Positions 363 to 53,850 of a stretch of 64,000 bases of DNA are shown here, piece after piece (position 1 is the first letter of the stretch; each line of letters begins with the position of its first letter). Origin of the DNA: a virus (taxonomy: Duplodnaviria; Heunggongvirae; Uroviricota; Caudoviricetes). Location of the stretch: the IMG/VR virus record IMGVR_UViG_3300028886_000053. One strand, 5' to 3'. Both the position numbers and the translations under genes were made by a program. Under the pieces are notes generated by a model. The model saw only the letters and a list, made by a program, of their open reading frames with translations, had not been told where the DNA came from and searched no databases.

Positions 363-434
363 GGTGATTGACGAGATTTGAACTCGCATATAGCGGTACC
401 ACAAACCGCTGCATAACCTTTCTGCCACAATCAC
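363..434 (-). tRNA. tRNA-His (anticodon GUG)
   Basis: Reverse complement folds as a cloverleaf. Acceptor GTGATTG/CAATCAC, anticodon stem GCGGT/ACCGC, loop TTGTGGT, discriminator C73 typical of His. T-arm GAGTTCAAATCTC. Confidence 0.7.
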
Positions 435-436
435 AG

Positions 437-510
437 TCGGAATGGCGGGATTTGAACCCACGACCTCTTGATCCCAAATCAAGCGTCATACCAAGCTAGA
501 CCACATCCCG
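437..510 (-). tRNA. tRNA-Pro (anticodon UGG)
   Basis: Acceptor CGGGATG/CATTCCG with one G-U pair. Anticodon stem CTTGA/TCAAG, loop TTTGGGA. T-arm GTGGGTTCAAATCCCGC. Lies 2 nt downstream of tRNA-His. Confidence 0.65.
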
Positions 511-528
511 ATATACAAGACACATTTG

Positions 529-600
529 TGTACAAATCGGGACTCGAACCCGAAATAAAACGTCCCTAAACATTTCGTTTAACCATTAAACTATTCGCAC
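529..600 (-). pseudogene. tRNA-like gene with aberrant anticodon arm (possible pseudo-tRNA)
   Basis: Good acceptor (GTGCGAA/TTTGTAC), D-arm and T-arm (TCGGGTTCGAGTCCCGA). No canonical 5-bp anticodon stem with a 7-nt loop can be drawn. The best fold is AAACG/CGTTT with a 13-nt loop containing UUUAGGG. Confidence 0.4.
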
Positions 601-653
601 TACTAAAGTAAAATTGCTGTATGTGTCTTTTATTTTTTTTATCTTATAAATAT

Positions 654-682
654 ATTATATAATAATTTTTTTATTTTTTCAA
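654..682 (-). promoter_or_regulatory. sigma70-like promoter (TTGAAA-N17-TATAAT) driving the tRNA-like gene at 529..600
   Basis: Reverse complement reads TTGAAA, a 17-nt spacer, then TATAAT. Representative of the promoter placed upstream of every unit in the tRNA array. Confidence 0.6.
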
Positions 683-866
683 GTATAATCTCTTATTTCA
701 AGATATTCTTCTATTGTTCCCTTAAAACCATTTTCTTTAGCCTATTGATATTCTTGACTTAAAAAAGAAGATAATGATGATTCATTTTTCTCCTAAGAAT
801 TTCTTTCTTTCACTTCAAAAACAGTTTTATCATTTGCCATTTTTATTTCCTCCTTTTAAGAAACAA

Positions 867-949
867 CGCCGTAGACAGGATTCGAACCTGCATACCATTT
901 CTGGCTACCTGTTTTCAAGACAGGGGCTCCACCGCTGAGCGACTACGGC
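867..949 (-). tRNA. tRNA-Ser (anticodon UGA)
   Basis: Acceptor GCCGTAG/CTACGGC. Anticodon stem CCTGT/ACAGG, loop CTTGAAA. Long variable arm (type II). T-arm CAGGTTCGAATCCTG. Confidence 0.75.
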
Positions 950-972
950 AAGGGTTGGTCTTTAATTCCTAA

Positions 973-1395
973 TTAAATAGTATTAATAACCTCCTCAAAT
1001 AAATAATCTGAAGCAAGTGAAAAACCTGTTTTTTGTCCAGTTTTAGGAGGTATTAATCTTAATGTTTTTTGAGATGTATTACCTTCTACTGGGATTAAAT
1101 AAAAAACTCCATCTTGTTCAGTCATAAAAAAGTCTATTTCATTTTTTGTATATGGTAAAATTTTATTACCATTTGATACAGCATGAGAACTTTTACAATT
1201 AAAAGTAAAAGCTTCTTTATTTTCATTTGTCCATCGAGAAGTTTTTACTTGTATTTTAAAAATTTTACCATCTTTATCTAAAAGAAAATCATATCTTGCA
1301 TCTAAAATAGGTTTAGCTACATTATAACCTTTTTCAAGACATTTTAAAAAACATCTTTGCTAAGTTAAAACTCCTTTTTGTAAATTCTAATTCAT
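973..1395 (-). CDS. PD-(D/E)xK-like / homing-endonuclease-like protein, paralog of 9051..9407. Two in-frame TAG codons lie in the N-terminal extension.
   Basis: Minus-strand translation KGYNVAKPILDARYDFLLDKDGKIFKIQVKT...LIPVEG...EEVINTI aligns along its length with ORF 9051..9407. It is absent from the standard-code ORF track because of the TAGs near the start. Confidence 0.4.
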
Positions 1396-1619
1396 ATTTT
1401 TATTTTTACTATTAAATATTAAATTAAAGACCTTACCTTATAATAACAAGTCCATAACATTTTCATCTTTTGAAAGAATAGGGAACAAAAATAGAGAATG
1501 TTATAAATAAAAATCCCCATTAGGTTAATTGAGAATTGTCTGGCTCTCCTTAAACCAATTAATAATTCTTGTTAATTCAGAAATTTTAAATAAAATTTGC
1601 TGTAATGGACTTTTAGAAA

Positions 1620-1708
1620 CGCAACCAGATGGATTTGAACCATCGGACCACCCTAGGGCGATCAACAGCTTAGCAGGCTGCCGCATTAAACCACTCTGCC
1701 ATGATTGC
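1620..1708 (-). tRNA. tRNA-Ser (anticodon GCU)
   Basis: Acceptor GCAATCA/TGGTTGC. Anticodon stem GCAGC/GCTGT, loop CTGCTAA. Long variable arm. T-arm GATGGTTCAAATCCATC. Confidence 0.7.
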
Positions 1709-1720
1709 ATATATGTATAA

Positions 1721-1793
1721 TCACCCACCTGGGGGTCGAACCCAGCCCTGCTGATTTAGAGTCAGCTGTCTTAAACCGCTTGACTAGTGGGCG
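1721..1793 (-). tRNA. tRNA-Sup(CUA): amber suppressor tRNA (anticodon CUA, reads UAG). D-arm resembles tRNA-Gln.
   Basis: Reverse complement is CGCCCAC-TA-GTC-AAGCGGTTTAA-GAC-A-GCTGA-CTCTAAA-TCAGC-AGGG-CTGGG-TTCGACC-CCCAG-GTGGGTG-A. The anticodon stem is a perfect 5 bp and the loop is 7 nt with CUA at positions 34-36. The D-loop AAGCGGU matches the bacterial tRNA-Gln D-loop (GCCAAGCGGUAAGGC). Confidence 0.8.
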
Positions 1794-1889
1794 TTACACA
1801 AGACAGATATATAATTAGCGTTTATATTTTACCAGAATATTGCTTTATTATAAATTAAATTGCTGTGTCTGTCTTTATCTTATAAATAT

Positions 1890-1918
1890 ATTATATAATA
1901 ATTTTTTTAAAAAATCAA
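1890..1918 (-). promoter_or_regulatory. promoter (TTGATT-N17-TATAAT) for the suppressor-tRNA transcription unit
   Basis: Reverse complement reads TTGATT, 17 nt, TATAAT. It is followed by the conserved leader motif AAAGACAGACACAGCAATTT and then the tRNA. Confidence 0.6.
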
Positions 1919-1928
1919 TTATAAAAAA

Positions 1929-2001
1929 TACACAGTATTGGATTTGAACCAATGACCTTATGTTTGTAAGACATATGCTCTCCCAGCTGAGCTAACCGTG
2001 C
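1929..2001 (-). tRNA. tRNA-Val (anticodon UAC)
   Basis: D-arm TAGCTCAGCTGGGAGAGC. Anticodon stem TATGT/ACATA, loop CTTACAA. Acceptor GCACGGT/ACTGTGT with two G-U pairs. Confidence 0.65.
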
Positions 2002-2281
2002 TTGTAAACTGGCGCCCCACCTTTCCAGTTATGATTGCCGCCCTCAACAACTTTCGCCGCGCTATGACAATCCCTTTTTAAAATAAAGAGAGAAACGATT
2101 CATAAGAACTCTCCAATAATTTCCTTCAGAACCTTTGGCCTTTAGAGTTGCCAGTTCTTATCTAAATTATCCAACTCTCTAAATGTTATTCTATCGTTTC
2201 TTTTCAGTTTCTATCTCTTGTCGCTGAAACTGGAAAACATGACGGTCTTCCATATCGCACGTGCATTTGATACAGAATAAA

Positions 2282-2561
2282 TGGACTTGACGGGAGTCGA
2301 ACCCGTGTCCAAAATTCATACTCTATATAATTGTTTACGCTGTTTTTATATAAAATTAATCACAGTAAAGGTTTTCGGTTCCACCAGTTAGTTGTTTTTG
2401 AACCTCAATAGCTACCACTAACATCTTACTATTTTTTTGGTTACGGAATTAAGCCGCCATTTTATATTCAAAATTGTTGTTTATTTTTAATTTGCAGTGA
2501 TTACGTCACCAATCGAGCGCAATTATATATTTCAAAACCCTGTCGATACCTTTTCAAGCCC
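2282..2561 (-). ncRNA. ssrA: candidate phage-encoded tmRNA (ssrA-like)
   Basis: The 5' end GGGCUUG pairs with the 3' end CAAGUCC-A. The 5' region GGUAUCGACAGGG matches the tmRNA consensus GGNUUCGACNGGG. The 3' T-arm is ACGGGTTCGACTCCCGT. An internal frame AAC AAC AAU UUU GAA UAU AAA AUG GCG GCU UAA (NNNFEYKMAA-stop) resembles the ANDENYALAA tag. Confidence 0.5.
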
Positions 2562-3440
2562 AAAAAGGCGGCCGTCTACCTCCCCGACCGCAGGGTAACA
2601 ATCAAGTGAGTAGTTTCAACCTCACGTATCTGAGATGGATGTCAAACTTCCCTTGTTTTTTCCCTCTACACATTTCGTTTTATTGGTTAGCCTAGGCGAG
2701 GCGTTGGAAGGTGGGACTCCCTGTGTTCCATCTTTACCAGCTTTATTCTCTTCACGACTTTTACATCAAAATAAATTTGACTCTGTGCTTGTCTATTGAT
2801 TGTTAGTGGAGGATAGGGGTTATGCTCCCCTGACTGAACCTTGCAAGGGTTCTGTGTTCCTGATTATACCAATCCCCCATGTGCGGCCGTCGCCGCATTT
2901 TAGTTCTAGACATATATTAAGTATTGTACTGCTTGATTAAAATTCAAGTGCCTTATCCTTTTGGCTATTTTGCGAATGGTTGCAAAAACAGGATTCGAAC
3001 CTGTAAAACATACTATAAAGTATAATTGCTGTATATGTCTAAATACACCCTTAAGGAGTTGAACCTTATGTACCGCGTTATCAGCACGGCCCTCAAACCC
3101 TCGAGGACAAGGTGCTTAATAGGATTAAATAAGACTTACTAATAATTCCGGACTTACTAAAAAACCTTATTTAATCGCCTGATTTTTGGACTTATCTAGC
3201 CCTCACTAGAATATCACCGTGGGAGGATGTTCTCTTTTTTTCCTATTTGAACTATCTTTCTTCTACCTTGTCTTCCTTTATTCCAATCAGACACCTAAAT
3301 TATTCATTTAGGCTTTTCAAAGCTTTGTAACGGGGGATCAACCCGTTAGTTCCCCAGGAGAGAATCGCACTCACTCGAACCCAAAGGTACAGGTTTTACA
3401 GACCCGCCCGCCTACTTTAACGGCTTACTGAGGATTAAAA

Positions 3441-3513
3441 TGGAAGATCCTAGAGTCGAACTAGGTCTAAAAGATTTTCAGTCTTCTGCGCGCACCGGCT
3501 ACACCAATCTTCC
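3441..3513 (-). tRNA. tRNA-Phe (anticodon GAA)
   Basis: Acceptor GGAAGAT/ATCTTCC. Anticodon stem GAAGA/TCTTT, loop CTGAAAA. T-arm CCTAGTTCGACTCTAGG. Confidence 0.7.
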
Positions 3514-3768
3514 TAACTCATTTTCATCATATTCCATAGCCACAATTCTTTTTAAATCCATATGTGACCAATTATATCCTTTATGACGTCCTTTACATTT
3601 CCATCCACCGGCTCCTATTTTAGTTTTACAAGAGCATAATGGACAAGAGCAATGAATCTTATTTTTACTATATTGATGAAGATTATCATACCATTCAAAA
3701 TAAACCATATTACGTTTCCGTAATGCTTTAGTAACATTTAGATGACGTCTTTCTGCTCTTGTTCTCAT
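3499..3768 (-). CDS. hypothetical small Cys-rich (Zn-binding) protein
   Basis: ORF track, 89 aa with CxxC...CxxC spacing. Its 3' end overlaps the 5' end of tRNA-Phe by about 15 nt. Confidence 0.3.
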   Translation of the reverse strand: MRTRAERRHLNVTKALRKRNMVYFEWYDNLHQYSKNKIHCSCPLCSCKTKIGAGGWKCKGRHKGYNWSHMDLKRIVAMEYDENELGRLV

Positions 3769-3908
3769 ATTTATATACCTCTTTAATCAAGACACCTTTT
3801 ATAGTTGCATATACCAATTCTGCTATTCTCGCAATTTTGCTGGCGCGAAAAATGGGACTTGAACCCATATAATACTATTTTCTTAGTAATTGCTGTGTGT
3901 GTCTTAAA

Positions 3909-3982
3909 TACTCTCAAAGAGATTCGAACTCTTAACACATTGGGTTTGGGCCAATGTCCTCTGCCAATTGGGATATGAGAGT
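3909..3982 (-). tRNA. tRNA-like gene, anticodon CAA, short variable arm (identity uncertain)
   Basis: Acceptor ACTCTCA/TGAGAGT. Anticodon stem ATTGG/CCAAT (extendable to 7 bp), loop CCCAAAC. T-arm AAGAGTTCGAATCTCTT. The D-stem is imperfect. Confidence 0.4.
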
Positions 3983-4012
3983 ATAGTACCCTAAGTGGGA
4001 TTCGAACCTAAG

Positions 4013-4095
4013 TGCCAGTGACAAGATTCGAACTTGCAAGCATTTAAGCCACCTGTTTCTAAGACAGGCTCCTGTGCCAACTCGGATACACTGGC
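4013..4095 (-). tRNA. tRNA-Leu (anticodon UAG)
   Basis: Acceptor GCCAGTG/CACTGGC. Anticodon stem CCTGT/ACAGG, loop CTTAGAA. Variable arm of about 14 nt. T-arm GCAAGTTCGAATCTTGT. Confidence 0.7.
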
Positions 4096-4173
4096 ATAAG
4101 TTGCGGTATTATTGTACGTCCGCCGCATCTAATCGGACTCAGCCTAATCCCACACAAGGATGGGTAGGTAATA

Positions 4174-4524
4174 TTAAAGTCCTTCAATCATATCATCATA
4201 GGCTTCTCTAGCCTGTCTCTCAATCTCAAGAGCATCTTCATGACGGTCATCCCACTTCTCATACTCAGCAGCATTATAAGCGAGAATTTCCTGCCACATA
4301 TCTCTTTGAACTCTAGTATACTTCACACGCTCTTTCGCAATCTTCATTGCACATCGGGCGGCCGCCAGCTTCTTTCCAGTTTCAAGGTCAAACTCATCCT
4401 GCTCACTACACTTGGCAACTCCGCGGATTGTACGACCCTTGTATGAAGCAACTGCAACAACGACATTTTCACCATTAGTATAATATCTATACTTTGGCAC
4501 AAAATTCTTTCTCATTTCTTTCAT
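4174..4524 (-). CDS. hypothetical protein
   Basis: ORF track, 116 aa. Confidence 0.4.
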   Translation of the reverse strand: MKEMRKNFVPKYRYYTNGENVVVAVASYKGRTIRGVAKCSEQDEFDLETGKKLAAARCAMKIAKERVKYTRVQRDMWQEILAYNAAEYEKWDDRHEDALEIERQAREAYDDMIEGL

Positions 4525-4549
4525 CTCCTTGTATCTCTTTTTATTTAAG

Positions 4550-4632
4550 TACCGACGGTGGGACTTGAACCCACACGATTCGAAATCCTGGGATTTTAAG
4601 TCCCATGCGTCTGCCTATTCCGCCACGCCGGC
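4550..4632 (-). tRNA. tRNA-Leu (anticodon UAA)
   Basis: D-arm TGGCGGAATAGGCAGACGC. Anticodon stem TGGGA/TCCCA, loop CTTAAAA. Long variable arm. T-arm GTGGGTTCAAGTCCCAC. Confidence 0.7.
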
Positions 4633-4772
4633 TAATTTCGGGGCCGGTACTTATTATACCGGCCGCTTATTTAAAAAACAAGACAGATAAATAAATTCTA
4701 AACAAAACCTTTGTTGATCTATCCTTAAAATTTGCTGTATCTGTCTTTTATAGTTAAGATATGAAATTAATA

Positions 4773-5495
4773 TTAAGATATGAAATCATCATAATAAGCC
4801 CATCGTAAAGGTTCTTTAGTCTAAGGGTGTTTTCCTGAGGTTTTTCGTTCACCTTTGCAAACTTTTATAATATTTGCATTTCCCTTTTGACCCGCCCATT
4901 GAGCTGCCTCTTGAATGGTATCAAAAATATGATTTGTATTTAAACATATAACTTTTCTATTTGTATGACCTTTTTTCTTTTTAGAAAAATTTTTAAATTT
5001 ATCGGGATTATCTAGATATTCATCTAAATATGCCCAACTTAAAAATTCATCTCCTATTTTTCCCGCATGTGCTCTAGTACCTTTACAAACAGAAGAAATA
5101 TGTCCTTCACTTCTATTATTTAAATATTTCTCAGCTGCGTCTGAAATAGTATTAAAAATTTCTTTAGTATTTAAACAAATTACTTCTCTATACTTTTCAG
5201 ATATAGTATTTCCACCTTCTCTGATATTATAACCAAATTGAGGATTGGTACTATTGTATTTTTGAATATAATATTTTTCCCAATAATTAGCTTCTTCTAA
5301 TGTTAGATGCTATTTTAATATAATATGTTCAAATGAATCCCATCCATATTTATTTATAGCATTAAAAAAATGGTAACAATTTTTATATCCTTTACCTTTT
5401 TTCCATCTTCTCTAGGGTTTTTGACAAGTTTGTCCTATATAAACTTTGTTATTCTACCTATTCTTATGAATATAAACACAATATTCTTTATACAT
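4773..5495 (-). CDS. GIY-YIG homing endonuclease with NUMOD-like C-terminal repeats. It contains 4 in-frame TAG codons.
   Basis: Minus-strand translation reads MYKEYCVYIHKNR*NNKVYIGQTCQKP*RRWKKGKGYKNCYHFFNAINKYGWDSFEHIILK*HLTLEEANYWEKYYIQKYNSTNPQFGYNIREGG. Two repeats VICLNT...I.EAA...KVCKG.R follow. The GIY...YIG...R...E...N architecture is intact only if TAG is translated. Confidence 0.6.
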
Positions 5496-5597
5496 TTTTT
5501 GCTCTCTTTTCTTTTGCTCTTTAATATTTTTAGGGAAGAGGCGAGCAAATACCTCTTTTCAATGGGTCATGACTCCCATCTATCCCCAAGAAATTTC

Positions 5598-5626
5598 GAG
5601 TAAGGAGTCGAACCTTACTCTTTTTT
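5598..5626 (+). terminator. tRNA T-arm-like hairpin (GAGTAAGG-AGTCGAA-CCTTACTC) followed by T6
   Basis: Perfect 8-bp stem with a T-loop-like loop (reverse complement TTCGACT), then TTTTTT. One copy of a repeated AAGGAGTCGAACCTT hairpin family. Confidence 0.4.
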
Positions 5627-5643
5627 AAACACACCGTGTGTTA

Positions 5644-6018
5644 TTAACCCTTCTTTTCCTTTAGAAAAGCGTCATACTCATCTTTAAAACACCACTGGTA
5701 TCCATACGCTTTTCTAGTTCTTGTTCTCTTATTCAGAGCATCACCGATACCGGACTTACCTTCCTTACCGATTGCTTCAAGTGCTTCCTTCTGAGTTGCA
5801 TATTCACCAACAATCTTACCAGTCTCTGGGTCAATCTGAAGCACTCCAGACTTATTAGGACTCTTTCTCTTCTTAGCGGCTGCCGCTTCCTGTTCCTCAA
5901 TCATATCAAGGAAATCTCCGAGAACCTCAAGTGTAGTTCCCTGAATACCAGGGTCAAGTTCTGCGGAATGTTCAAAATAAAAAATCAAACCTTGAATCTT
6001 TGACTTATCCATGTTCAT
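5644..6018 (-). CDS. hypothetical protein with homing-endonuclease-type DNA-binding motif (IENR/NUMOD-like)
   Basis: ORF track, 124 aa. The C-terminus GEYATQKEALEAIGK...GIGDALNKRT..AYGYQWCF is typical of HEG accessory DNA-binding modules. Confidence 0.35.
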   Translation of the reverse strand: MNMDKSKIQGLIFYFEHSAELDPGIQGTTLEVLGDFLDMIEEQEAAAAKKRKSPNKSGVLQIDPETGKIVGEYATQKEALEAIGKEGKSGIGDALNKRTRTRKAYGYQWCFKDEYDAFLKEKKG

Positions 6019-6753
6019 TACTCCTTTTTACTCTTTTGTTTACGTTTTCTTTATCTTATGTATATATTATATCAAAAAATTTTCAAGAAGTCAAAAAAAT
6101 TGAATAACTTAACTATATCTATGAATACAGGTCTTCACCTTACCAAAACTATTCTTCAAATATATTCGACCACTAAGGAAACATACCTGAGGAGAAAGGA
6201 GCGACCTTTCACCTATATGCCCCAGTTCATAAGAACCAATTCTTAGAGGGGATTGCTTACCCTTAACTTTCAGCTACCTTTCAGTAAGTATTGTGAGAAA
6301 GAAATCCTAATCTTGCTCAAAATATAACCAATTTGTCTTTGCAGATTTAGCCTACTCGTACCCTGACCTAACCTTATACACGACTTTCATCGCTTCAACT
6401 GCGAAATCCCTTATTTGGATTTTCCAAGGTTTGACTAGTTTTCCACGCTACTTCCTAACTTGGATTGGTGCTTTTGTTAGAAACCCCATATTGCGGGACC
6501 GATTAGAACAGTGTCTTTATTTGCGAATAATCTCAGTGCTACTAGCCAGAACCCTCCCGTTCGTTTGGGCGTTCTATATATCACTATATAAAACTTTTAA
6601 AGTAAAAACGTATCCGTCGTTACTCAGTTATTCACTTATGGCTATCATACCTCAGCCCTATGGAATTAGGGTTTATCACTGAGTTGATTCATAAATATAA
6701 TTAAGTTATTCAATTTTTAAGGTTCTGAAATATGTTAGAATATCTAACTTTAA

Positions 6754-6824
6754 TTCTCAGATAAGGAGTCGAACCTTATATTTACTTAATGGATAAGTAA
6801 GTATTACCTTTATACTACTGAGAG
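6754..6824 (-). tRNA. tRNA-Trp (anticodon CCA)
   Basis: D-stem GTAT/ATAC. Anticodon stem TACTT/AAGTA, loop ATCCATT. T-arm TAAGGTTCGACTCCTTA. Acceptor has 6 bp plus a C1-A72 mismatch. Confidence 0.55.
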
Positions 6825-6872
6825 CCTTGAAAAGAAAGTGAATATAAATGAACGAGAATTAACTTCTCGGAA

Positions 6873-6946
6873 TAGCGGGAGTGGGATTCGAACCCACGTT
6901 ACATGCCCTATGAAAGCAGGCTGGCACCTCTCCAGACCATCCCGCT
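6873..6946 (-). tRNA. tRNA-Glu-like (anticodon UUC) with imperfect anticodon and D stems
   Basis: Acceptor AGCGGGA/TCCCGCT. T-arm GTGGGTTCGAATCCCAC. Anticodon loop CTTTCAT is flanked by GCCTG/AGGGC (4 bp plus one mismatch). An alternative 15-nt loop fold is possible. Confidence 0.4.
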
Positions 6947-7048
6947 ATATAACCAAGACAGATATAAAAACTAACTTGCTTTAAATCCCTAATTTAACGT
7001 TTGTTTTTTATAAAAATTGCTGTGTCTGTCTTTTTATTTTCTAAAAAT

Positions 7049-7077
7049 ATTATAACAAAAAATTTTCAAAAAGTCAA
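7049..7077 (-). promoter_or_regulatory. promoter (TTGACT-N17-TATAAT) for the tRNA unit at 6873..6946
   Basis: Reverse complement reads TTGACT, 17 nt, TATAAT. The downstream leader contains AAAAGACAGACACAGCAATTT. Confidence 0.55.
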
Positions 7078-7241
7078 TTTATAGGTACTTTCCGCAATGT
7101 ATGACATCGCACGTAATCATATTTACATATTTTTATTATGCTAGGGTTCTAAAAGATATAGTATACATCTATCAATTAGCTTCTATTGTCGAGGCTTGTT
7201 TCCCTACCCTATTGTTAGGCTTTCACTCCCTATAAATTGAA

Positions 7242-7315
7242 TAGCCCCTGGGGGAGTTGAACCCACCATCTTGACCTTGAAAGGGTCATATCCTGTCCCT
7301 TTAGAAGAAGGAGCC
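7242..7315 (-). tRNA. tRNA-Glu (anticodon UUC)
   Basis: Acceptor GGCTCCT/AGGGGCT with two G-U pairs. Anticodon stem TGACC/GGTCA, loop CTTTCAA. T-loop TTCAACT. Confidence 0.6.
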
Positions 7316-7507
7316 ATATATTCTCATGAGTCGCCACACTCTCTATTAGGGGTAAGAGATGTACCCTGTGCCTATCCATAGCCAATGACCAAGTTATCAA
7401 TTTTCAAACCTGACGAAAACCAACCTTCATCACTCCTCAAGGTAAAGCGGCTTAGTATCCGACTAAGCAGGAACTTACATTTGGCAGAGAGTAAGTCAAT
7501 CTCATAG

Positions 7508-7580
7508 CGGGAACACTAGGACTTGAACCTAGAACCACTCACTTAACAGGCGAGCGCTCTGCCGATTGAGCTATGAACCC
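7508..7580 (-). tRNA. tRNA-Asn (anticodon GUU). Acceptor stem has two central mismatches.
   Basis: D-arm GCTCAATCGGCAGAGC. Anticodon stem CTCGC/GTGAG, loop CTGTTAA. T-arm CTAGGTTCAAGTCCTAG. Acceptor GGGTTCA/TGTTCCC has T-T mismatches at pairs 4 and 5. Confidence 0.5.
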
Positions 7581-7762
7581 ATATTAAAAATAACTTCGTT
7601 CATTTTATGGATGCCCTACCTATCATCCCTAATTCCGTGGGTCGCTATCCCACTTACTTGAAGGGTGCCCCGTTATGGTCTCTCACTGCCGACCGCCTGG
7701 GAGGGTGAACTCTTTGAAGATATAATGTACACTCATCTTCAATTGCCATTGTTATTTTTAAA

Positions 7763-7834
7763 CGACCTAGCGGAGAGTTGAACCCCGATTTCCAGAGCGA
7801 CAATCTGGTGTAATGTCCGTTATACTACAAGGCC
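7763..7834 (-). tRNA. tRNA-Asp (anticodon GUC)
   Basis: Anticodon stem CCAGA/TCTGG, loop TTGTCGC. T-arm CGGGGTTCAACTCTCCG. Acceptor GGCCTTG/CTAGGTC has one mismatch. Confidence 0.55.
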
Positions 7835-8061
7835 AAATAAGACCTGGGCTGGTCCGCTTGTATCAGAGGCGCCCCAGGTACTGATATATCTAAAAATAGA
7901 AAGTTTTAAATCTCTTCTACGGATTCCTTTTCTTATGTCCGAAATTCTTACCGGTCTTAGGTACTGTTGTATCAATCGACTGACATTGACCTGGTTCTTC
8001 AGGTGGATTACTCGGAAGGAGGTTTGCAACCCTCTCAACCGTTTCCTTAACTTTCTATAAA

Positions 8062-8090
8062 TATTATAACAAAAATTTTTGTTTTTTGCA
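8062..8090 (-). promoter_or_regulatory. promoter (TTGCAA-N17-TATAAT)
   Basis: Reverse complement reads TTGCAA, 17 nt, TATAAT. The conserved motif tattataacaaaaatttttg recurs at 8380-8420 and 13920-13960. Confidence 0.5.
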
Positions 8091-8101
8091 AATGATTTTT
8101 A

Positions 8102-8173
8102 TCACTCCTAAGAGATTCGAACTCTTATCTTAACACTGAGAATGTCATATCCTTGCCTTTAGACGAAGGAGCG
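8102..8173 (-). tRNA. tRNA-Glu (anticodon CUC)
   Basis: Acceptor CGCTCCT/AGGAGTG. Anticodon stem TGACA/TGTTA, loop TTCTCAG. T-arm AAGAGTTCGAATCTCTT. Confidence 0.6.
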
Positions 8174-8559
8174 ATAGGGGTTATACCCCTTGTTCTACTC
8201 GAACATAATTTTCTGTTACTTCATAATGAATTCTTCCGAATCTTTCTTCCAAAAACCGTACCTGTGAGAAACCTTTCACAGTTATTAAATGCTTTCTGTT
8301 TCTGTCGTCAACATATGTAACCACGTAAATCACTTCGTTCTTATTCATTTGAAAGTCCTCCACATGATACTGTTTTTTACATTATTATTATAACAAAAAT
8401 TTTTATTTTTTACAAATAAATAATTTATTGAGTGCATGGAAGAAAACGCTTCACGTTTTGGCTATAATTTTAGCTATTTGCTACCGCAAATCTCTCAATA
8501 AATAGTTTTAAGGTCAACCAACCGCACATCTTTTTATCATCGCTTTTGCTAAGATGAAA

Positions 8560-8630
8560 AGCCAACGGCCGGACTCGAACCGACATACAGTGATTACAAA
8601 TCACTAGTCCTACCATTAGACGACGGAGGC
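8560..8630 (-). tRNA. tRNA-Thr (anticodon UGU). Acceptor stem has two central mismatches.
   Basis: D-arm GTCTAATGGTAGGAC. Anticodon stem AGTGA/TCACT is perfect, loop TTTGTAA. T-arm GTCGGTTCGAGTCCGGC. Acceptor GCCTCCG/CGTTGGC has mismatches at pairs 4 and 5. Confidence 0.5.
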
Positions 8631-8748
8631 ATAAAACAAAGTTTTATGATGTCAATTAATAAGGAAAAACTTTGTAAAAAACCTCATGCCATCACCTGAT
8701 ATTTATACTGGACATATTGACGAGTTCCAGTTATGCAAAATTGCAAAG

Positions 8749-8821
8749 TGGATCACCAGGGATTCGAACCCTGATTTGACGGGTTAAGAGCCCGCTGTAA
8801 TAGCCGTTATACGAGTAATCC
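8749..8821 (-). tRNA. tRNA-Lys (anticodon CUU)
   Basis: Acceptor GGATTAC/GTGATCC. Anticodon stem GCGGG/CCCGT, loop CTCTTAA. T-arm CAGGGTTCGAATCCCTG. Confidence 0.7.
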
Positions 8822-8830
8822 AAGGTAAAG

Positions 8831-8902
8831 TACGCCCGATGGGACTCGAACCCATGATATACAGGTTAAAAGCCTGCTGCCATACCACTTGGCTACGGAC
8901 GC
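8831..8902 (-). tRNA. tRNA-Lys (anticodon UUU)
   Basis: D-stem GCCA/TGGC. Anticodon stem GCAGG/CCTGT, loop CTTTTAA. T-arm ATGGGTTCGAGTCCCAT. Confidence 0.7.
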
Positions 8903-9050
8903 TTATTAAATTTATAAATGCCCGCAGGCTTACGTTTTCGTTTCATTTCTTTTTACCACCTTATAAATATATTATATAATAATTTTTTATTTTTTGCAAA
9001 TAAGCCGATAACGGGAATCGAACCCGTGTTTGAACCTTGCCTTACAATGC

Positions 9051-9407
9051 TTATAATGTATTTAATACCTCCTTTGCTTTATAATCTTCTAAATAAGACC
9101 AATTACTTCTTATTTCATGTTTTGTTAAATGAAGAGTTTTAGAAGTTGAACATTCTTTTATTGGAATCAAATAAAGTTCATTATCCCAAAATGTTGCAAA
9201 ATAGTCTATTTCTTTAGAGGTATAACCATTACTTTTATTTTGTTGCTTTGATGTTGTTACAGATACACATTTTATTTGAATAGCATCTTTTGTAGAAGGA
9301 TGAGGATGAGCAGTTTTTATTTGTATTTTTAATAATCTCCCTTTAACATCTACAATGCAATCATATCTGCTATCAGCATTTAAAGGTTGAGATACATCAT
9401 ATCCCAT
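9051..9407 (-). CDS. PD-(D/E)xK-like / homing-endonuclease-like protein (paralog of 973..1395)
   Basis: ORF track, 118 aa. The motif YDCIVDVKGRLLKIQIKT is shared with the copy at 973..1395. A T-arm-like hairpin (ACGGGAATCGAACCCGT) lies just 3' at about 9010-9030. Confidence 0.45.
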   Translation of the reverse strand: MGYDVSQPLNADSRYDCIVDVKGRLLKIQIKTAHPHPSTKDAIQIKCVSVTTSKQQNKSNGYTSKEIDYFATFWDNELYLIPIKECSTSKTLHLTKHEIRSNWSYLEDYKAKEVLNTL

Positions 9408-9479
9408 CTATATAAATCGCAACATAACTTGCATTTCTGTTATAAGACCTTTTTGATTTGTAGTATATTCCATTTTATT

Positions 9480-9960
9480 TTTATACACTATAAGTTTGTT
9501 AAGGCAAGGTCCCGTATTCACCACTATACGACATCGACAAAAACTAGGATATATGCGCACTCACCTAGACGACATTTTAGCACCTCGTCAGGCCGAGTCT
9601 ATTTTAGCTACCCACTCCCGAGGCCGCGTGTTTACCATACCGCAGGGATAGTTAGCTCTTAAGGCGGCACTAACAACAACCTCCCGTCCTAATTTTACAA
9701 CCAGTGGGTTGGCGGAGTTCTTTCTCAAGCGTCTACTTTTATCATAAAAGTAACAAACTCGATGGGTTACGGGCACCATCAGCTACGTCTATCCATGTTG
9801 TCGTACACAAATAGAGAAAAACGCCGCTATTGATAAAGCAGTAAATTCCTGGAATGTCCCAGCCAGTTAGGGACTAGGTACTTTCGTGCCTAGTTACCGG
9901 AGTTTCTTTTGAATAATATTTTAACTACTTAGATAATTACCTGTACCTCATTATCTTTTC
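9480..9960. ncRNA. GC-rich ORF-free structured region (candidate large ncRNA or degenerate intron). Identity unknown.
   Basis: GC content is locally far above the flanks. GNRA-type hairpins are present, e.g. CTAGGCACGAAAGTACCTAG. No credible ORF; 9588..9779 is compositional. Confidence 0.25.
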
Positions 9961-10000
9961 ATATAAAATACATTACAGGCTAACTCAACTTTATCCTTAA

Positions 10001-10073
10001 AGCCCCATGTGGGAGTTGAACCCACCTCCTTAGCTTGGAAGGCTAATATATTAAACCGATATACGAATGGGAC
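10001..10073 (-). tRNA. tRNA-Gly (anticodon UCC)
   Basis: Acceptor GTCCCAT/ATGGGGC. Anticodon stem TTAGC/GCTAA, loop CTTCCAA. T-arm GTGGGTTCAACTCCCAC. Confidence 0.65.
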
Positions 10074-10215
10074 AAATGCGAAATGCCTTGGCCTTCAGCA
10101 TTTCTATGCTTTTTTCTTGTCCTGTAAAAACTTTTAACAGCAGGGAATACATTGTTTTAAGAAATGGTATTCATCACTCTTTATATATATATTATATCAA
10201 AAATTTTTGAAAATA

Positions 10216-10596
10216 TCAATTAATAGCATATTTTTCAAGAAATTCGTCGGGATTATTAAAAAACATATCTTCTAATTCATTAAAATCCAAAGTAGGAAGT
10301 TTATTTTCATTCAACTGATGAATATCCCAAGCAGTATCTTCTCCATAAACTTCATCACGAATATTATCTACTTCTTCTCCACCTTCATCATAATCAATAT
10401 CTTCCCATTCACACTGGTCTTTAACGTCATCTTCAAGAGCATCAACAATATCTCCGTATTCATTGATTACTTCATAAGACATTTCCAATCCCAATGCTTC
10501 AGCTTCTTCTTCTGTGCCTTCAAAGATTTCATATCTTATCATTCCATGAAGTCCACCATAAAATTCATCATATCCTTTAATTGCCCAAATTGCCAT
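10216..10596 (-). CDS. highly acidic early protein (candidate DNA-mimic anti-restriction, Ocr/ArdA-like)
   Basis: ORF track, 126 aa, dominated by D/E runs (EDDVKDQCEWEDIDYDEGGEEVDNIRDEVYGED). It has its own consensus promoter at about 10600-10650 on the minus strand. Confidence 0.45.
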   Translation of the reverse strand: MAIWAIKGYDEFYGGLHGMIRYEIFEGTEEEAEALGLEMSYEVINEYGDIVDALEDDVKDQCEWEDIDYDEGGEEVDNIRDEVYGEDTAWDIHQLNENKLPTLDFNELEDMFFNNPDEFLEKYAIN

Positions 10597-10653
10597 ATAA
10601 ATTCCTTTCTTTTCTTTATTATGATATTATTATATCAAAAATTTTTAAAAACG

Positions 10654-10962
10654 TCAAAAAACTTCTGTCCAACCATAATGTTTTAAAAGTTGACGAATAT
10701 TATTAGCACCAACAGGATTCATTGAATGAATACGAAATTTACCAAAATAATTATATTCAACCAACCATTTGGCAATATCATAACCTGTTTTTCCTTCTCC
10801 TAAATCATGGTCAAAATCAATAACAAGAGAAGGAGCATAAGGAATTGTGGTCAAGGCGGCAATCGCTTCATCATACGATTTAACCCAGAGTGCATCCGGA
10901 ATAAGCGGCTGCCGTATGTCATCAATATAAATATAAATTTCTTTTTCTTTTTCCTTTTTCAT
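10654..10962 (-). CDS. hypothetical protein (DxD / DHD acidic motifs)
   Basis: ORF track, 102 aa. Confidence 0.4.
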   Translation of the reverse strand: MKKEKEKEIYIYIDDIRQPLIPDALWVKSYDEAIAALTTIPYAPSLVIDFDHDLGEGKTGYDIAKWLVEYNYFGKFRIHSMNPVGANNIRQLLKHYGWTEVF

Positions 10963-11010
10963 GGTATTATTATATCAAAAATTTTATAAAAAAACAAATA
11001 AAAATTGTCC

Positions 11011-11304
11011 TCACTTCATTATTGTTGAAGTTTTCCAATGTCTATAAAAAGATTTTAAAGTGGGATAACGACGAAGCCAATAAACATCATCTTTATTTGC
11101 TTCATACCATTCCTTTGCTTCATGCCAAGGCCAATAACTTATATAATCATGTATATCATAAGGTTCAAAAACTCGTCTATAAGATTTGCCACTAGGAACA
11201 TCATTTGTTCTACGAACCTTTTTATTGGCTTCTCGCTTTGCAAATTTAACTCTAGTAGGTCCACCGTCTTTAGTATAAGGATGTTTTTTATAAGAACGTG
11301 ACAT
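11011..11304 (-). CDS. hypothetical basic protein
   Basis: ORF track, 97 aa, K/R-rich. Confidence 0.4.
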   Translation of the reverse strand: MSRSYKKHPYTKDGGPTRVKFAKREANKKVRRTNDVPSGKSYRRVFEPYDIHDYISYWPWHEAKEWYEANKDDVYWLRRYPTLKSFYRHWKTSTIMK

Positions 11305-11337
11305 AATATTTTTCTCCTTTAGTTAAAAATACAACCA

Positions 11338-11417
11338 CATTAGGAATCGAACCTAAACTACTCCCTGCGGGGCGTGCTACGCGCTTAAATTAACTTCCAT
11401 TACACTATGTGGCTAGT
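11338..11417 (-). tRNA. tRNA-like gene with long variable region (type II-like). Anticodon unresolved.
   Basis: Acceptor AGCCACA/TGTGGTT. T-arm TTAGGTTCGATTCCTAA. The internal GC-rich segment does not give an unambiguous anticodon stem. Confidence 0.3.
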
Positions 11418-11706
11418 ACACCCCCAAGGAGTCGAACCTTGTGTACCTGGGTATAAGCCAGACCCCCAATACCGTCGAGGACGAGGTGCTTATGAATCCC
11501 AATATTTAGGATTCACATAATAATTATTTAAATATCCATTATAAAGAATTTTTCCACAATATTTACATCTCCAAGCACTTCGATAAATATGAGAAGTAGA
11601 AGTCTGATTAATTTTATCCCCATAAATATTACGAATAAATTCTATATTATTATGTTTGCAAAATAATTGTTTAATTTTTTTCATATTTATATAATTTGCT
11701 TTAAAT

Positions 11707-11817: not shown

Positions 11818-13987
11818 CTATATATTAATCAATCAATCAATTCTCTCAACTCCTCTATCCACTCAATAGGAATAGGAAATCTTTGCTCTGAATATCGCTC
11901 CATTGCATCTAATATTTCTCTTATTCGAGTCTTATCATGTATATATTTAGGTTTTAAACCAAGAGGAGGCATAGGAACAGTAGTTGTTGGATAATCTATC
12001 TTCATTTCTATTTTTCCTCTTTTAATTCTTTTAATCCCGTCATTAAACAATGACAATAAATATTATTTTTTTTACTACATCTATCTGGACATCCTGTATC
12101 ATTACAATAAAGGCAACATTTAGAATACCCTTTATTTTCATCACAATCATTCAATGCACAATAAATATATTCGTCCTTCATATCATAAACTTTCGCTTAA
12201 CTGCTTCTTGATTTATAAAACTAGTAAATTTCATACAATCAGAATAATTCTTCCAATGAAAGATTAATAGATTTGTATCACGAAAGTAACGAATTTTATC
12301 AGCATGAAATGTATCTTTCAATAGAAGAACATAATCTGCGGGCGCTATACCTAACATCCTGGCTGGATACCACCATGTATTTGACCCATGCGCCAAATCT
12401 GATGTATCTCCAGTTTCCCACCCATATGGAGTTTGCCATTCTTTATATTTTAATAAATGACTCATAGATTTAATGAAGCTAGCAGAGTAGCGACATTCTC
12501 CTTCTCTTCTTCTGTCATTTCGACAGGCTTCTCAGCAACAGGTTCTGATGCGGTAGGAAATGCGCTTTCTACTGCTCCACTTCCTAGAATATTCTTTGCT
12601 GCGGTTAGAGTAACCTTGATTTCAATCGGGTTCCCGCCTTCATTCATCGGAATCCGCAAAATCTTGTTCTCATCTTCCCAAAATGAATTTGGATAAATTT
12701 CCTTTAACTTATTAAAAATTATATACTTTGACTCTGTACCTTTTGCGCCCATGTTATATAATCCCTCCAATTATCTGCAAAGTAACTTGAATTATAAGTT
12801 GTATATGTTTTGCCTGTTTCTGTTGAGTAGGTTGAATAGGAATGACGATTAATATTTTTCTTTCCTTCCTATCTCATTTTTCTTTTTGCAATATATCGTG
12901 CTTGTCTACGTGTTACAATATACTCTGTTGGTACTCTTGGGTCTTTCATTTTTCATCCTCTTTATTATACTATAAATTTTTATTTTTGTAAATTATACCG
13001 ATTTGATTCTATTTTAAAGTTTTTGCTAATGAAGAAACTTGTAAACAAAAAGAACAAGTAGAAACATTACAACGTTTATTACAATTTAATCGTTTCTATC
13101 CAAAATAAGGTATTAAATAATATGAGTCTGTATCCTCTTTAAAACCTTTAATAATTTCATTTAAAGGTCCCGCCCATCTTTTTCCATTATTATATAAATC
13201 ATATAACACATTTAAAGAATCTTTATCATATTCTGCATTAAAAAATTCTACCACATCTATATATTTATTATATAAATTTATATCTTCAGGTCTAATGAAA
13301 AATGTCCTTAAAGAATTGGTTTCTGGCCAAGAGAACTGACAAATATTACAAAATGTTCTTATTTTTTTATTTTTCTCTTGAGCTTTTTGTTTTATTATGT
13401 CCATAGAAAAACAAAGATCTTCAGTAACATATATATCTGTTACTGAGGTTTCTAATAATCCATTAAATATATCCCATCTATTAGCAAGAGTGAAATAGTA
13501 ATGCGGAAGCTGCTTCTCTGCCAGAAGAGTCTAGATTTCTTTAGCATAAAAAGGCTCTCTTATATCTGGTAATCGCATAACTAAGTCACATGTAGGATAT
13601 TTCTACCTAAATGCCAGGATTAAATCGGGGTCCCGCTCCTAATCAAAATCTCCCCAGCTATCAAAAATCAAATTAATACGTTTCTATTTATATTTTATAA
13701 TAAAATTTTCTAACTATTTTACTTTTGGTTTGTAGTGAATATCAATTTCCACATTTGGCTAATCAAAATAATCAAACTTCCTCGTATAAGGAATTGAAAA
13801 ATTCATCTTCTAACTCCTCCCTGGCAATAAAATCTTCGGGCGGATTCATCATGTACTCATCTCTTAAATCAGATTCCAGTTCAGCCATAAAAATAAAATC
13901 GTCCATATTTATCACCTCATATTTTATTATAATAATTATAACAAAAATTTTTTAAGATTACAAGTCCAAATTCTAAAAATCAATATA

Positions 13988-19479: not shown

Positions 19480-19482
19480 AGA

Positions 19483-19917: not shown

Positions 19918-19958
19918 TATGGGACGGGGGACTCCCCCGTACCCCCTCGGGATGCTAG

Positions 19959-20935: not shown

Positions 20936-20998
20936 ATTTGATTTTATTTTTATAAAGAGTATAGAGAAAAATATTTTTTATAAAGGAGAAATTTTATT

Positions 20999-23495: not shown

Positions 23496-23502
23496 CCAAT
23501 TC

Positions 23503-40823: not shown

Positions 40824-42044
40824 ATGCAAGAAAAAGAAGATAACGTTATTCCTACTGAAGATGACGCTGTAGATACACAAGAGTTAAAACTTGATTATAC
40901 GATCTAGTCACCAGTGGAACGTAATGAATTAGTAAAAAAGATTGTAGAATCCTTACCTCCCTAGAAGTTAACGAATAGATACTTAGAAATATTAGCGGAT
41001 TATATTATATTTGCAAAAACGAAAGAATAGAGAAAAAAACAAGAGTCTATTAATACTGAAAATAGAATGATAACAATAAATAAACGGTAGACTTCATTTT
41101 AGGGACTAGTAGGAAAATTTGAAAATGGAGAAGATGGAGTATATAACTTATTTACAGAAGATAAGAACATTATCTTTACTCCAAAGATTTCAATTACAGA
41201 AGAAGATTTGGCGGAGATTCCAGCCTTACGAGAATTACGTGCAGCTATTGAAGAGGTTTAGAAACTTTAGAAAACAGCTCGTGGTAAACGTAAATATCTT
41301 CTTAAAAAACAAATTATTTAGATGCGGCAAGATCAGTATGTTATTAAAACTTCTTATAAACAACCGATCTTTTGTCTTAATGCCGTAAAAAATTTCAGTT
41401 CAATGAGTTTTGAAGATAACATTTCTATATCTCCAGATGGAAAAATAAAAGATAAGAGTTTAATATCTTTTATAAATCCTAAACATATCTCTGCTCTATT
41501 GAGAAATTATTCCCGATTAAAAGAAGATTGTTATGGAAAATTTTATACTGATGGATATTATATGATGGAAGTTTTAGATGAATTAGTGGACAAAGCTTTA
41601 AAAGAAAAATATCCTCTTTATTATAGTTTATTGATATATAAAATAGATGGGAAGTCTAATTTAGAAATTCAAAAACTATTAGAAGAAGAACATGGAATAA
41701 GACATTCAGTTGAATATATTTCTTCTCTTTGGCGAAATAAAATTCCAAAATTAATTGCAGAACAGGCCGAAATTGATTTTTTACATTGGTATTATTTAGA
41801 AAAAGAAAAAGGGAAATGGAAAAAATGTTCTCGATGTGGAGAAGTAAAATTAGCGCATAATAAATTTTTTTCTAAAAATAATTCTAGCAAAGATGGATTT
41901 TATTCAATCTGTAAATAGTGCAGAAATAAAAAGAAACGCATAACTCCTAAACCAGAAATTATAAAATATAGAGAAATTGAAAACGGAGTTGTAGTAAAGG
42001 AGGAGATATGGCGAAAAAGAAATGTAGCAAATGTTAGCGAGTAA
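40824..42044 (+). CDS. hypothetical late protein, TAG-recoded (about 9 in-frame TAG), C-terminal CxxC...CxxC zinc ribbon, ends TAA
   Basis: Single frame from ATG 40824 (frame 0) through standard-code fragment 41322..41918 to TAA at 42042-44. The C-terminus is CSRCGEVKLAHNKFFSKNNSSKDGFYSICK-Q-CRNKKKR. Confidence 0.5.
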
Positions 42045-43225
42045 TGGAGGATTTAAAATTTTATTCTAAAAAAAACGGAGATAAATTTGATATGTGCAAG
42101 TAGTGTTTAACTATGCACGTTGATAATTATAATGAAGATACTTTTTTATGGATAATAGAATAGGCAGATCTTCCTTGGGTACCTAGCGAATGGAACGCTA
42201 TTAGATAGAAATAGTATGCCAAAAAAGGCAGAAAAATGAATGGAATGAGTGTTGTCGGAAAATATTTTTCCAAAATGAGGTTAAATCAATGGAAGAAATA
42301 TAATTGGGCAACGAGTGCGGAAGCACAAGAGGAAGCTAATCTTAACAAGTAGTTTAAAGAAGAGCAACAAAAACAATTAGAGTAGAAGTTAAAAGAAGAT
42401 TTTGAAAAGGGTTAGATTACTTAGTCACAATATCGAACTTTAGTTTCTTCTAGTTTTCAGAAGTAGCATTAGTATATGATGCGGCCGGCCGGTTAGGAAG
42501 AGGACCCGGTTGGTAAAGATAATGCCTTTAGATAGGAATATTTCTTATCGGAAGAGGATTTACCCGATCCCGCAGCTGAATTAACAAAAGAAGATAAACA
42601 ATATTTGGCAATGAAATGGGGTCGAAATTATAAACCTAGTCAATGGTTATTGCTTGAAACCAAGTACACCGAAATGATGAATTCATTTGACATTCAGGAT
42701 GCAGATAGTAAAAATACATTAATGTTTATTTGTAAAACATATTTAAAAATGGATGAAGCAATTGATATAGGTGACGTTGAAAGTTATCAAAAACTATCCC
42801 GTGTCTATGATCAGTTACGTAAGTCTATGAAAGTAACGGCCGCGCAAAAGAAAGAAGAGAATAATTAGTTTATAGATTCAGTTGGCTAGTTAGTTGCCTT
42901 TTGTTAGAAACATGGACATGTGATACCTGAATTTTAGATAAAAGCTCCTCATGATATAGTTGATAAAGTCATAAATGATATGAAGGGTTATAATAGATCT
43001 TTGATTTATGAAGACAAAGCCCTTGCTAGACAAATCGAAGATTATATTAAAGAAGCGCGTGCGGCAGCTGCTAGAAAGAAAGACCGAGAATAGGCTAAGA
43101 AGAGAGGCTAGGATTATTATACAATTACAGATAAAGATATTTTAGATTATAAAGACTTCCTTCATAGTGAAAAAATATGGACAGAAAAAGAAATGAAGGG
43201 AGAGGATAACAATGAGTCTTAGTAA
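42008..43225 (+). CDS. late protein with N-terminal zinc ribbon, TAG-recoded (about 19 in-frame TAG). Possible terminase small subunit by position.
   Basis: ATG 42008 (SD AAGGAGGAG), MAKKKCSKC-Q-RVMEDL...DMCK-Q-CLTMHVD. The frame includes fragment 42605..42868 and ends TAG-TAA at 43220-25. It immediately precedes terL. Confidence 0.4.
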
Positions 43226-53849: not shown

Positions 53850-53850
53850 T

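Follow-up and report, generated by a model that had tools for sequence, protein, structure and literature searches.

Recoding of a stop codon with the help of a phage-encoded suppressor tRNA is already known. The closest described systems are the TAG-recoded gut phages assigned to genetic code 15 (crAss-like, Lak and Garnet/Topaz clades; 10.1101/2021.08.26.457843), and proteomic validation of TAG-recoded gut phages has been published (PMC9523058). A second system is phAss-1, for which Babkin et al. described TAG→Gln (glutamine) recoding and three tRNA-Sup-CTA genes (PMC10607447). In phages whose code is unlike that of the host, Borges et al. found only TAG→Gln and TGA→Trp (10.1101/2021.08.26.457843). 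The suppressor tRNA isotypes predicted by Kienbeck et al. are Gln, Trp, Ile and Tyr; glutamate (Glu) is not among them. No report of TAG→Glu in a phage was found in the open-access and bioRxiv literature, where annotation papers assume table 15, and phrase matches for reassignment to glutamate concerned only the eukaryote-type TAA/TAG→Glu code, cited there as a sign of contamination. The searchable literature thus has no phage with TAG→Glu. The DNA considered here is a stretch of 64,000 nucleotides, called the window, from the IMG/VR virus record IMGVR_UViG_3300028886_000053 (Caudoviricetes). Its late genes use TAG as a sense codon, and the phage carries a matching tRNA with anticodon CUA (1721..1793, minus strand). 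Comparisons of codons, distant homologs and tRNA sequences indicate that this tRNA likely decodes TAG as Glu, not Gln.

The late module of the window (40.8-64 kb) forms long genes only when TAG is read as sense, as the initial annotation had proposed. In the standard code, stop-to-stop open reading frames (ORFs) of at least 100 amino acids (aa) cover 0.53 of this block. Coverage rises to 0.98 when TAG is treated as sense, but only to 0.63 when TGA is. The longest ORF of the block has 384 aa in the standard code and 1547 aa when TAG is sense. Read in the latter way, the block resolves into 22 abutting plus-strand ORFs or exons that contain 115 in-frame TAGs, and every one of them is terminated by TAA or TGA, again in agreement with the earlier description. 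The TerL and portal proteins obtained in this way align with their homologs from end to end. Most of the minus-strand genes at 10-19 kb and 29-40 kb contain no TAG; a few non-late genes, at 12946-13827 and 19482-22041, also contain it. The relevant codon counts in the late block are GAA 464, GAG 97 and TAG 115. Read as Glu, TAG accounts for about 17% of the Glu codons of the late block, more than GAG.

The suppressor gene itself is well defined. At 1721-1793 ARAGORN predicts a tRNA gene whose anticodon is CTA and labels it 'Pyl' (pyrrolysine) from the anticodon alone, and the Rfam tRNA model matches the same interval with 55.1 bits (E 3.9e-9). The canonical 73-nt cloverleaf, CUCUAAA loop and CUA anticodon of the initial annotation are borne out by both programs and by covariation in the family; the gene lies on the minus strand, which had been left unstated. 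The full sequence, CGCCCACUAGUCAAGCGGUUUAAGACAGCUGACUCUAAAUCAGCAGGGCUGGGUUCGACCCCCAGGUGGGUGA (73 nt), folds by hand as follows. (i) The acceptor arm is CGCCCAC/GUGGGUG, with C1-G72, G2·U71 and C3-5:G68-70. (ii) The D-arm has a 3-bp stem, GUC/GAC, and the loop AAGCGGUUUAA, with canonical G18G19, a U11-A24 pair and extra D-loop uridines. (iii) The anticodon arm has a 5-bp stem, GCUGA/UCAGC, closing the loop CUCUAAA. (iv) A 4-nt variable loop is followed by the T-arm CUGGG-UUCGACC-CCCAG, which carries the canonical TTCGA of the T-loop. (v) The discriminator is A73, and CCA is not encoded. Across 13 suppressor relatives and two tRNA-Glu the cloverleaf is 99.7% paired, with compensatory changes in 12 of 20 pairs; not one of 500 shuffles matches the real alignment in pairing and covariation. 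A metagenome scan recovered the exact suppressor sequence four times, together with sister variants that have compensatory acceptor changes.

The amino acid inserted at TAG cannot be read directly from database proteins. A protein-level tabulation over 240 homologs of TerL and portal returned both Q and E at positions that face TAG, and was set aside because these proteins are code-15 translations. Code-15 gene callers print Q for the relatives' own TAGs, so that a database Q at such a position is uninformative; database protein P0002 shows Q exactly at TAG positions of the window. Codons were therefore compared in the DNA of 41 related viral contigs, which provide 103,444 aligned codon pairs. 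TAGs of the window face TAG in 768 pairs, GAA in 442, GAG in 128, GAT in 72, CAA in 41, GAC in 20 and CAG in 13, that is, 570 Glu codons and 54 Gln codons. Taken in reverse, TAGs of the relatives face GAA (439), GAG (73), GAT (77), CAA (46) and CAG (12) in the window. The Glu:Gln ratio opposite TAG is about 10:1 in both directions and about 4:1 when normalised for abundance. Once TAG-TAG pairs are removed, the TAG partner profile is E.63, D.10 and Q.06; genuine Glu codons give E.74, D.08, K.05 and Q.03, and genuine Gln codons Q.78, K.04 and E.04. The log-likelihoods of the corresponding identities for TAG are -1512 for E, -2795 for D (aspartate, Asp) and -3262 for Q.

Other views of the same alignments agree. 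A relative's TAG stands opposite 6.5% of the Glu columns of the window vs 1.6% of its Gln columns. When pairs are collapsed to sites, which avoids repeated counting of related sequences, 54 of the 88 informative sites have E as their majority sense residue and six have Q. Among the codons one mutational step from TAG, GAG exceeds CAG about five-fold after normalisation for abundance, the pattern expected if TAG and GAG exchange synonymously. Amino acid composition points the same way. Reading TAG as Glu raises the Glu share of the late genes from 7.7% to 9.25%, next to 9.4% in the TAG-free early genes; reading it as Gln raises the Gln share from 3.8% to 5.4%, next to 2.9% in the early genes.

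Because close relatives share their history, a separate test was made on phages that use the standard code: Enterococcus phage EF1, Alicyclobacillus KKP_3916, Bacillus FADO, Brevibacillus Sundance and Lactococcus AM4 (loci L358-L362). These proteins are compared at 25-30% identity, where mutational proximity is irrelevant. Over 76 TAG sites (203 columns), E is enriched 4.4x opposite the TAGs of the window, D 1.5x and Q 1.2x, and the log-likelihoods are E -496, D -555 and Q -580. The share of Glu is 34.5% among residues that face TAG and 33.8% among those that face genuine Glu codons in the same alignments. Individual sites are clear as well. The TAG at 44609, in TerL exon 2, faces Glu in all five standard-code TerLs; those at 44576 and 46164 face Glu in four of these phages, and those at 44540 and 42905 in three. 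At no TAG site do three or more of the five agree on Gln. By eye, no TAG was seen to coincide with a catalytic Glu of TerL, in Walker B or in the nuclease. The same procedure applied to phAss-1 (37 TAG sites, 69 columns) gave Q 4.9x and E 2.7x, with Q as the best log-likelihood. Since phAss-1 scores as Gln, as published, the method separates the two meanings, and the window and phAss-1 differ.

The initial annotation had gone further and suggested a supE-like tRNA that inserts Gln. This part is not supported: residues opposite TAG point to Glu in close relatives and standard-code phages alike, the tRNA has neither U1-A72 nor G73, and its acceptor and D-arm are those found in tRNA-Glu. Bacterial tRNA-Gln in the sample have U1 in 83 of 86 cases, G73 and mostly a 5-nt variable loop, and 75 of 105 tRNA-Gln have a loop of that length, whereas the suppressor has C1-G72, A73 and the 4-nt loop seen in 19 of 30 tRNA-Glu. 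The D-loop is AAGCGGUUUAA in the suppressor vs AAGCGGUAAG in tRNA-Gln. The D-loop motif AAGCGGU, on which the likeness to bacterial tRNA-Gln had been based, is indeed present, but is common to tRNA-Gln and tRNA-Glu and hence not diagnostic. Viral tRNAs with the exact 17-nt D-arm of the suppressor comprise three with anticodon CUA, four Glu, two His, one Cys and one Gln. The acceptor signature N-GCCC...GGGU-N occurs in 7 of 30 Glu, 3 of 105 Gln (all of A1-U72 type) and 2 of 58 Leu tRNAs.

Sister sequences carry this comparison further. One type of sister suppressor (L163, L175, L201) combines the anticodon arm of the window tRNA with an acceptor and D-arm identical to those of a tRNA-Glu(UUC); the L163 type keeps G1-C72 and has a Glu(UUC)-Glu(CUC) gene pair about 130 nt away. 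A tRNA-Glu(CUC) at L173 matches suppressor variant C over the acceptor and D-arm, except for a flipped 1-72 pair. Within the set of 13 suppressors and two tRNA-Glu, G2·U71 (14 of 15), C3-5:G68-70 and U11-A24 are conserved. All three features recur in bacterial tRNA-Glu of the GGCCC...GGGUC-A type and in phage tRNA-Glu(UUC/CUC) (L173, L182, L223), which further have in common with the suppressor the D-arm GUCAAGCGGU(U)UAAGAC, the 4-nt variable loop and A73. The suppressor differs from these tRNA-Glu in its CUA rather than YUC anticodon, its C1-G72 rather than G1-C72 pair and its anticodon stem. On this comparison it would be a body of tRNA-Glu type, with an anticodon that reads UAG and the first pair flipped to C1-G72. 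The lack of tRNA-Gln marks and the presence of tRNA-Glu marks back up the codon evidence but would not suffice by themselves. A recent origin as a copy of the phage's own tRNA-Glu genes was rejected, as identity to them is only 54-64%. Assignment by nearest-neighbour tRNA was dominated by long or odd ARAGORN calls and was set aside. In phAss-1, two tandem suppressors (L363 15446-15611; record 62445-62610) have weak first pairs, U1·C72 and A1-U72, and G73 in both, and are Gln-like. One of these, of 88 nt, carries behind its anticodon arm an insert of about 20 nt, either a long variable arm or an intron.

The anticodon arm has a distribution of its own. The 17-nt arm GCUGA-CUCUAAA-UCAGC was seen in 39 distinct CUA tRNAs of very different bodies (loci L163-L357), among them class II tRNAs with long variable arms and one odd D-arm type. 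This common arm is a sign of either convergent evolution towards an optimal amber-suppressor arm or exchange of arms between tRNAs, and the diversity of bodies behind it implies that suppressors of several amino-acid identities exist.

A route by which TAG could come to mean Glu can be proposed. (i) The glutamyl-tRNA synthetase (GluRS) of the host would charge the suppressor with Glu. U11-A24 and a 4-nt variable loop, in which position 47 is missing, are elements of GluRS recognition in Escherichia coli. Firmicutes are generally without glutaminyl-tRNA synthetase (GlnRS) and make Gln-tRNA via a non-discriminating GluRS that accepts C36 or G36; the hosts of the relatives are Firmicutes, and a non-discriminating Firmicutes GluRS is a plausible charger of an anticodon with A36. 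Co-option of GluRS makes sense in such hosts because they have no GlnRS. (ii) The amidotransferase GatCAB would leave the Glu unamidated, given the missing U1-A72 and the extra D-loop uridines. Bacterial GatCAB recognises U1-A72 of Glu-tRNA-Gln and rejects tRNA-Glu via the supernumerary D-loop base U20B (PMC2811023). As the first determinant is absent from the suppressor and extra D-loop uridines are present, Glu on this tRNA should stay Glu. (iii) The supply of suppressor may gate late expression, an idea already published for recoded phages (Borges et al., 10.1101/2021.08.26.457843); here the sigma-like first late gene requires nine TAG read-throughs. Genes for RF2, a synthetase or GatCAB were not detected within the window (PHROG searches; no ORF exceeds 310 aa in 0-40 kb); only a minority of recoded phages carry accessory genes such as RF2 or a synthetase.

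Several observations weigh against decoding of TAG as Glu by this tRNA. The GluRS of E. coli uses anticodon base C36 as an identity element, and GluRS charging of a CUA anticodon is hence putative. The canonical first pair of tRNA-Glu is G1-C72, and the window tRNA has C1-G72. The AAGCGGU D-loop with the GUC/GAC stem is also found in 17 genuine bacterial tRNA-Gln, in a scan of bacterial genomes whose pattern forced T34 and an A four bases on; it returned almost only tRNA-Gln(UUG) and is uninformative on tRNA-Glu. Ad hoc isotype hidden Markov models (HMMs) are ambiguous: the window tRNA scores Asp 30, Glu 26 and Gln 19, sister variant C scores 37.5 and the L163 type 39 as Glu, and sister variant B scores best as Gln (34.8). 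The window covers 64 kb of about 145 kb, and the remainder could encode a synthetase or another suppressor. Finally, a substitution profile describes evolutionary behaviour only, and minor insertion of Gln or Asp is possible (partners D 10%, Q 6%).

Mixed decoding develops this last point. Part of the Glu charge would be amidated, or another synthetase would mischarge the tRNA, so that some TAGs are read as Gln or Asp. The TAG profile is slightly flatter than that of true Glu codons, Asp and Glu score similarly on the isotype HMMs, and TAG is avoided in the most abundant virion proteins, as expected if its decoding is costly or imprecise. A flatter profile is equally expected if TAG is preferred at less constrained Glu sites; TAG nevertheless occupies invariant Glu columns of TerL, and both GatCAB determinants are absent from the suppressor. 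Mixed decoding is judged unlikely. The standard reading, in which a supE-like tRNA-Gln(CUA) reads TAG as Gln under code 15, is the default of public gene callers and has precedent behind it: Gln is the sole TAG meaning reported in phages that differ from their host, and the related phAss-1 looks Gln. The AAGCGGU D-loop and GUC/GAC stem do occur in bacterial tRNA-Gln, a sister variant has its best HMM score there, and Gln is the third most common TAG partner (6%). Set against this are the excess of Glu over Gln opposite TAG, the enrichment values from standard-code phages and the absence there of any site with three or more Q, the suppressor's 4-nt variable loop, extra D-loop uridines and missing U1-A72 and G73, and the origin of database Q's in code-15 translation of the relatives' own TAGs. 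Decoding as Gln is thus a very improbable reading of this window. That the TAGs still end translation, in genes that are decayed or broken up, or are occasional read-through sites, beside an incidental or pyrrolysine tRNA, is suggested by nothing but the anticodon-based label 'Pyl' and is practically refuted by the 115 in-frame TAGs that restore full-length TerL, portal and other proteins, by the 768 TAGs kept as TAG in relatives under purifying selection and by a coverage of 0.98 reached only with TAG as sense.

The pyrrolysine assignment was rejected on structural grounds as well. tRNA-Pyl has a small D-loop without GG, a 3-nt variable loop and a 6-bp anticodon stem, and occurs with pylS/pylBCD genes. 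The window tRNA has G18G19, a TTCGA T-loop, a 5-bp anticodon stem, a 4-nt variable loop and a Glu-like substitution profile; no pyl genes lie within the window.

Decoding of TAG as Glu can be placed in a wider setting. Among large Firmicutes siphoviruses, the SPbeta, EF1 and 949 groups have virion modules similar to that of the window. The best annotated match of the portal protein is phAss-1, at 37% identity, followed by the five standard-code Firmicutes siphoviruses named above. A megablast search of 40.8-52.4 kb gave no nucleotide-level match in the annotated phage collection, phAss-1 included. Close relatives number in the thousands in the protein database (7,880 TerL matches), on contigs of up to 142-146 kb; the whole phage genome, of which the window forms one section, is roughly 145 kb in size. 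The ROOL RNA and the sample identifiers hint at an origin from rumen or gut. The window would likely represent an abundant, rumen- or gut-type lineage of large phages with a TAG=Glu code undescribed in any virus or prokaryote, achieved through a tRNA-Glu-derived suppressor that GluRS charges and GatCAB ignores, and with database proteins mistranslated to Gln.

Within the late block, PHROG matches comprise a sigma-like factor, pieces of TerL, three homing endonucleases and the portal; together with homologs they support the terL, portal and tape-measure identities given earlier. The first late gene (40824..42044, plus) is sigma-factor-like (phrog_5767) and has 9 in-frame TAGs. The following 'gene B' (42008..43225, given earlier as 41981-43225; plus; phrog_3314) is the densest in TAG of the window; the TAG richness first noted for it is confirmed, and the count is 20 rather than about 19. 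The terL gene (43212..47030, plus) carries 18 TAGs in three exons (43212-43550, about 44540-44872 and 45969-47027). In relatives it is uninterrupted (577 aa), and the window copy has two introns, which contain a LAGLIDADG (43590-44240) and a GIY-YIG (44902-45732) homing-endonuclease gene. Both of these are TAG-free, and the exons around them have 1-4 TAGs per 100 codons. Further downstream, all on the plus strand, are the portal gene (47524..49134; phrog_2739) with 8 in-frame TAGs, a major-capsid-like gene (51189..52307; phrog_4088) with none, a 434-aa gene (53833..55137) with 9, a 338-aa gene that is possibly the tail tube (56562..57578) with none, and a tape-measure-like gene of more than 1523 aa (59431..63999) that has 20 and runs off the window. 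The relatives (L002-L042) repeat this pattern: TAG per 100 codons is 0.03 in capsid-like and 0.06 in tail-tube-like genes, and 1-4 elsewhere. These two are probably the most highly expressed virion genes, and avoidance of TAG in them suggests that its decoding is limiting or costly. Outside the late block, a minus-strand gene without a PHROG match (12946..13827) has 10 TAGs, and three plus-strand ORFs (19482-19916, 20999-21721 and 21718-22041) have 6, 6 and 4 in frame.

The suppressor belongs to an array of about 27 tRNA genes (363..11489, all minus; ARAGORN and Rfam), of which ARAGORN alone reports 24 tRNA-like genes. The array includes a tRNA-Glu(CUC) called by ARAGORN (8101..8174, minus) and a tRNA-Glu(UUC) with anticodon loop CUUUCAA that ARAGORN missed (7242..7315, minus; Rfam 42 bits). 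Two further Rfam matches were missed by ARAGORN: a tRNA at 2807-2878 (minus) that by eye is Ala(UGC), with G3·U70 and an unusual T-loop, GCAUAAC, and a weak 62-nt match far from the array (30871-30932, minus; 29.9 bits). No tRNA-Gln, tRNA-Arg or tRNA-Cys was seen in the window by ARAGORN or Rfam. A tRNA-like gene at 528-600 (minus; Rfam 48.3 bits) has an 8-nt anticodon loop, UUUAGGGA, to which ARAGORN assigns the four-base anticodon UAGG; it could be of quadruplet-decoding or frameshift-suppressor type, or a degenerate tRNA. Also inside the array is a transfer-messenger RNA (tmRNA) gene (2279-2561, minus; Rfam 69.9 bits; ARAGORN tag peptide GGTENLYCD*). That a phage which suppresses one stop codon also encodes a tmRNA is noteworthy. 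A full-length ROOL RNA (6109-6707, minus; RF03087, 296.8 bits, model positions 1-574) is present as well, and the ORFs predicted over this stretch (6109-6489 and others) are probably not real genes. A GIY-YIG homing-endonuclease gene in the array (4773-5495, minus) has 4 in-frame TAGs. No Rfam match to HDV-like or theta ribozymes beside the tRNAs was obtained in 1-13 kb at E < 0.1.

Between the array and the late block lies a region of low coding density (about 22100-34800) with GC-rich islands of 46-50% GC vs 34% overall (22124-22523, 23420-23789, 24651-25192, 25805-26305, 27351-27909, 28592-28878, 31666-31945 and 34382-34798). Their 'ORFs' translate to nonsense rich in Arg, Pro and Gly, and Rfam gave no match to the islands at E < 0.05. 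Candidate identities are structured RNAs that lack annotation, and introns.

Several consequences would follow if TAG is read as Glu. TAG→Gln and TGA→Trp have so far been treated as fixed, and have been explained by the ease with which GlnRS and TrpRS are hijacked; GluRS, together with escape from GatCAB, would be a third synthetase system open to co-option. There would be an additional natural variant of the genetic code. Public proteins would carry systematic Gln-for-Glu errors in thousands of entries, as the prodigal-gv and Pharokka-gv pipelines print Q; such an error alters charge and matters for structure prediction and for the identification of proteomic peptides. The tRNA would also offer synthetic biology a natural amber→Glu suppressor scaffold.

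Four known systems can be compared with the window. E. coli supE (tRNA-Gln2, CUA) likewise reads UAG with anticodon CUA, but inserts Gln and has a tRNA-Gln body with U1-A72, G73, G2-C71 and G3-C70, marks that are all absent from the window tRNA. The nuclear code of peritrich ciliates (NCBI table 30) assigns both TAA and TAG to Glu, genome-wide and in a eukaryote. The common feature is a stop codon that becomes Glu; the window differs in that only TAG is affected, in a virus, mostly in late genes and presumably in a standard-code host. With phAss-1, of the proposed genus Phassvirus and the NCBI 'Caudoviricetes code 15 clade' (PMC10607447), the window shares a siphovirus-like type, a genome of roughly 135-145 kb, a presumed gut-type habitat, a homologous virion module, TAG in terL, portal and tape-measure genes, and tRNA-CUA genes of its own. 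It differs in lacking nucleotide similarity, in that the TAGs of phAss-1 score as Gln, and in that the phAss-1 suppressors have weak first pairs and G73 vs C1-G72 and A73. Membership of Phassvirus was rejected: about 80% nucleotide identity or more and shared synteny are needed, there is no megablast match, and the portal is only 37% identical. The code-15 gut phages (10.1101/2021.08.26.457843) resemble the window in that the host uses the standard code (presumably so for the window), TAG is found mainly in late and structural genes, the tRNA array includes a tRNA(CUA), and only TAA or TGA serve as terminators. In those phages TAG is Gln and the suppressor Gln-like, whereas in the window TAG behaves as Glu and the suppressor appears Glu-like.

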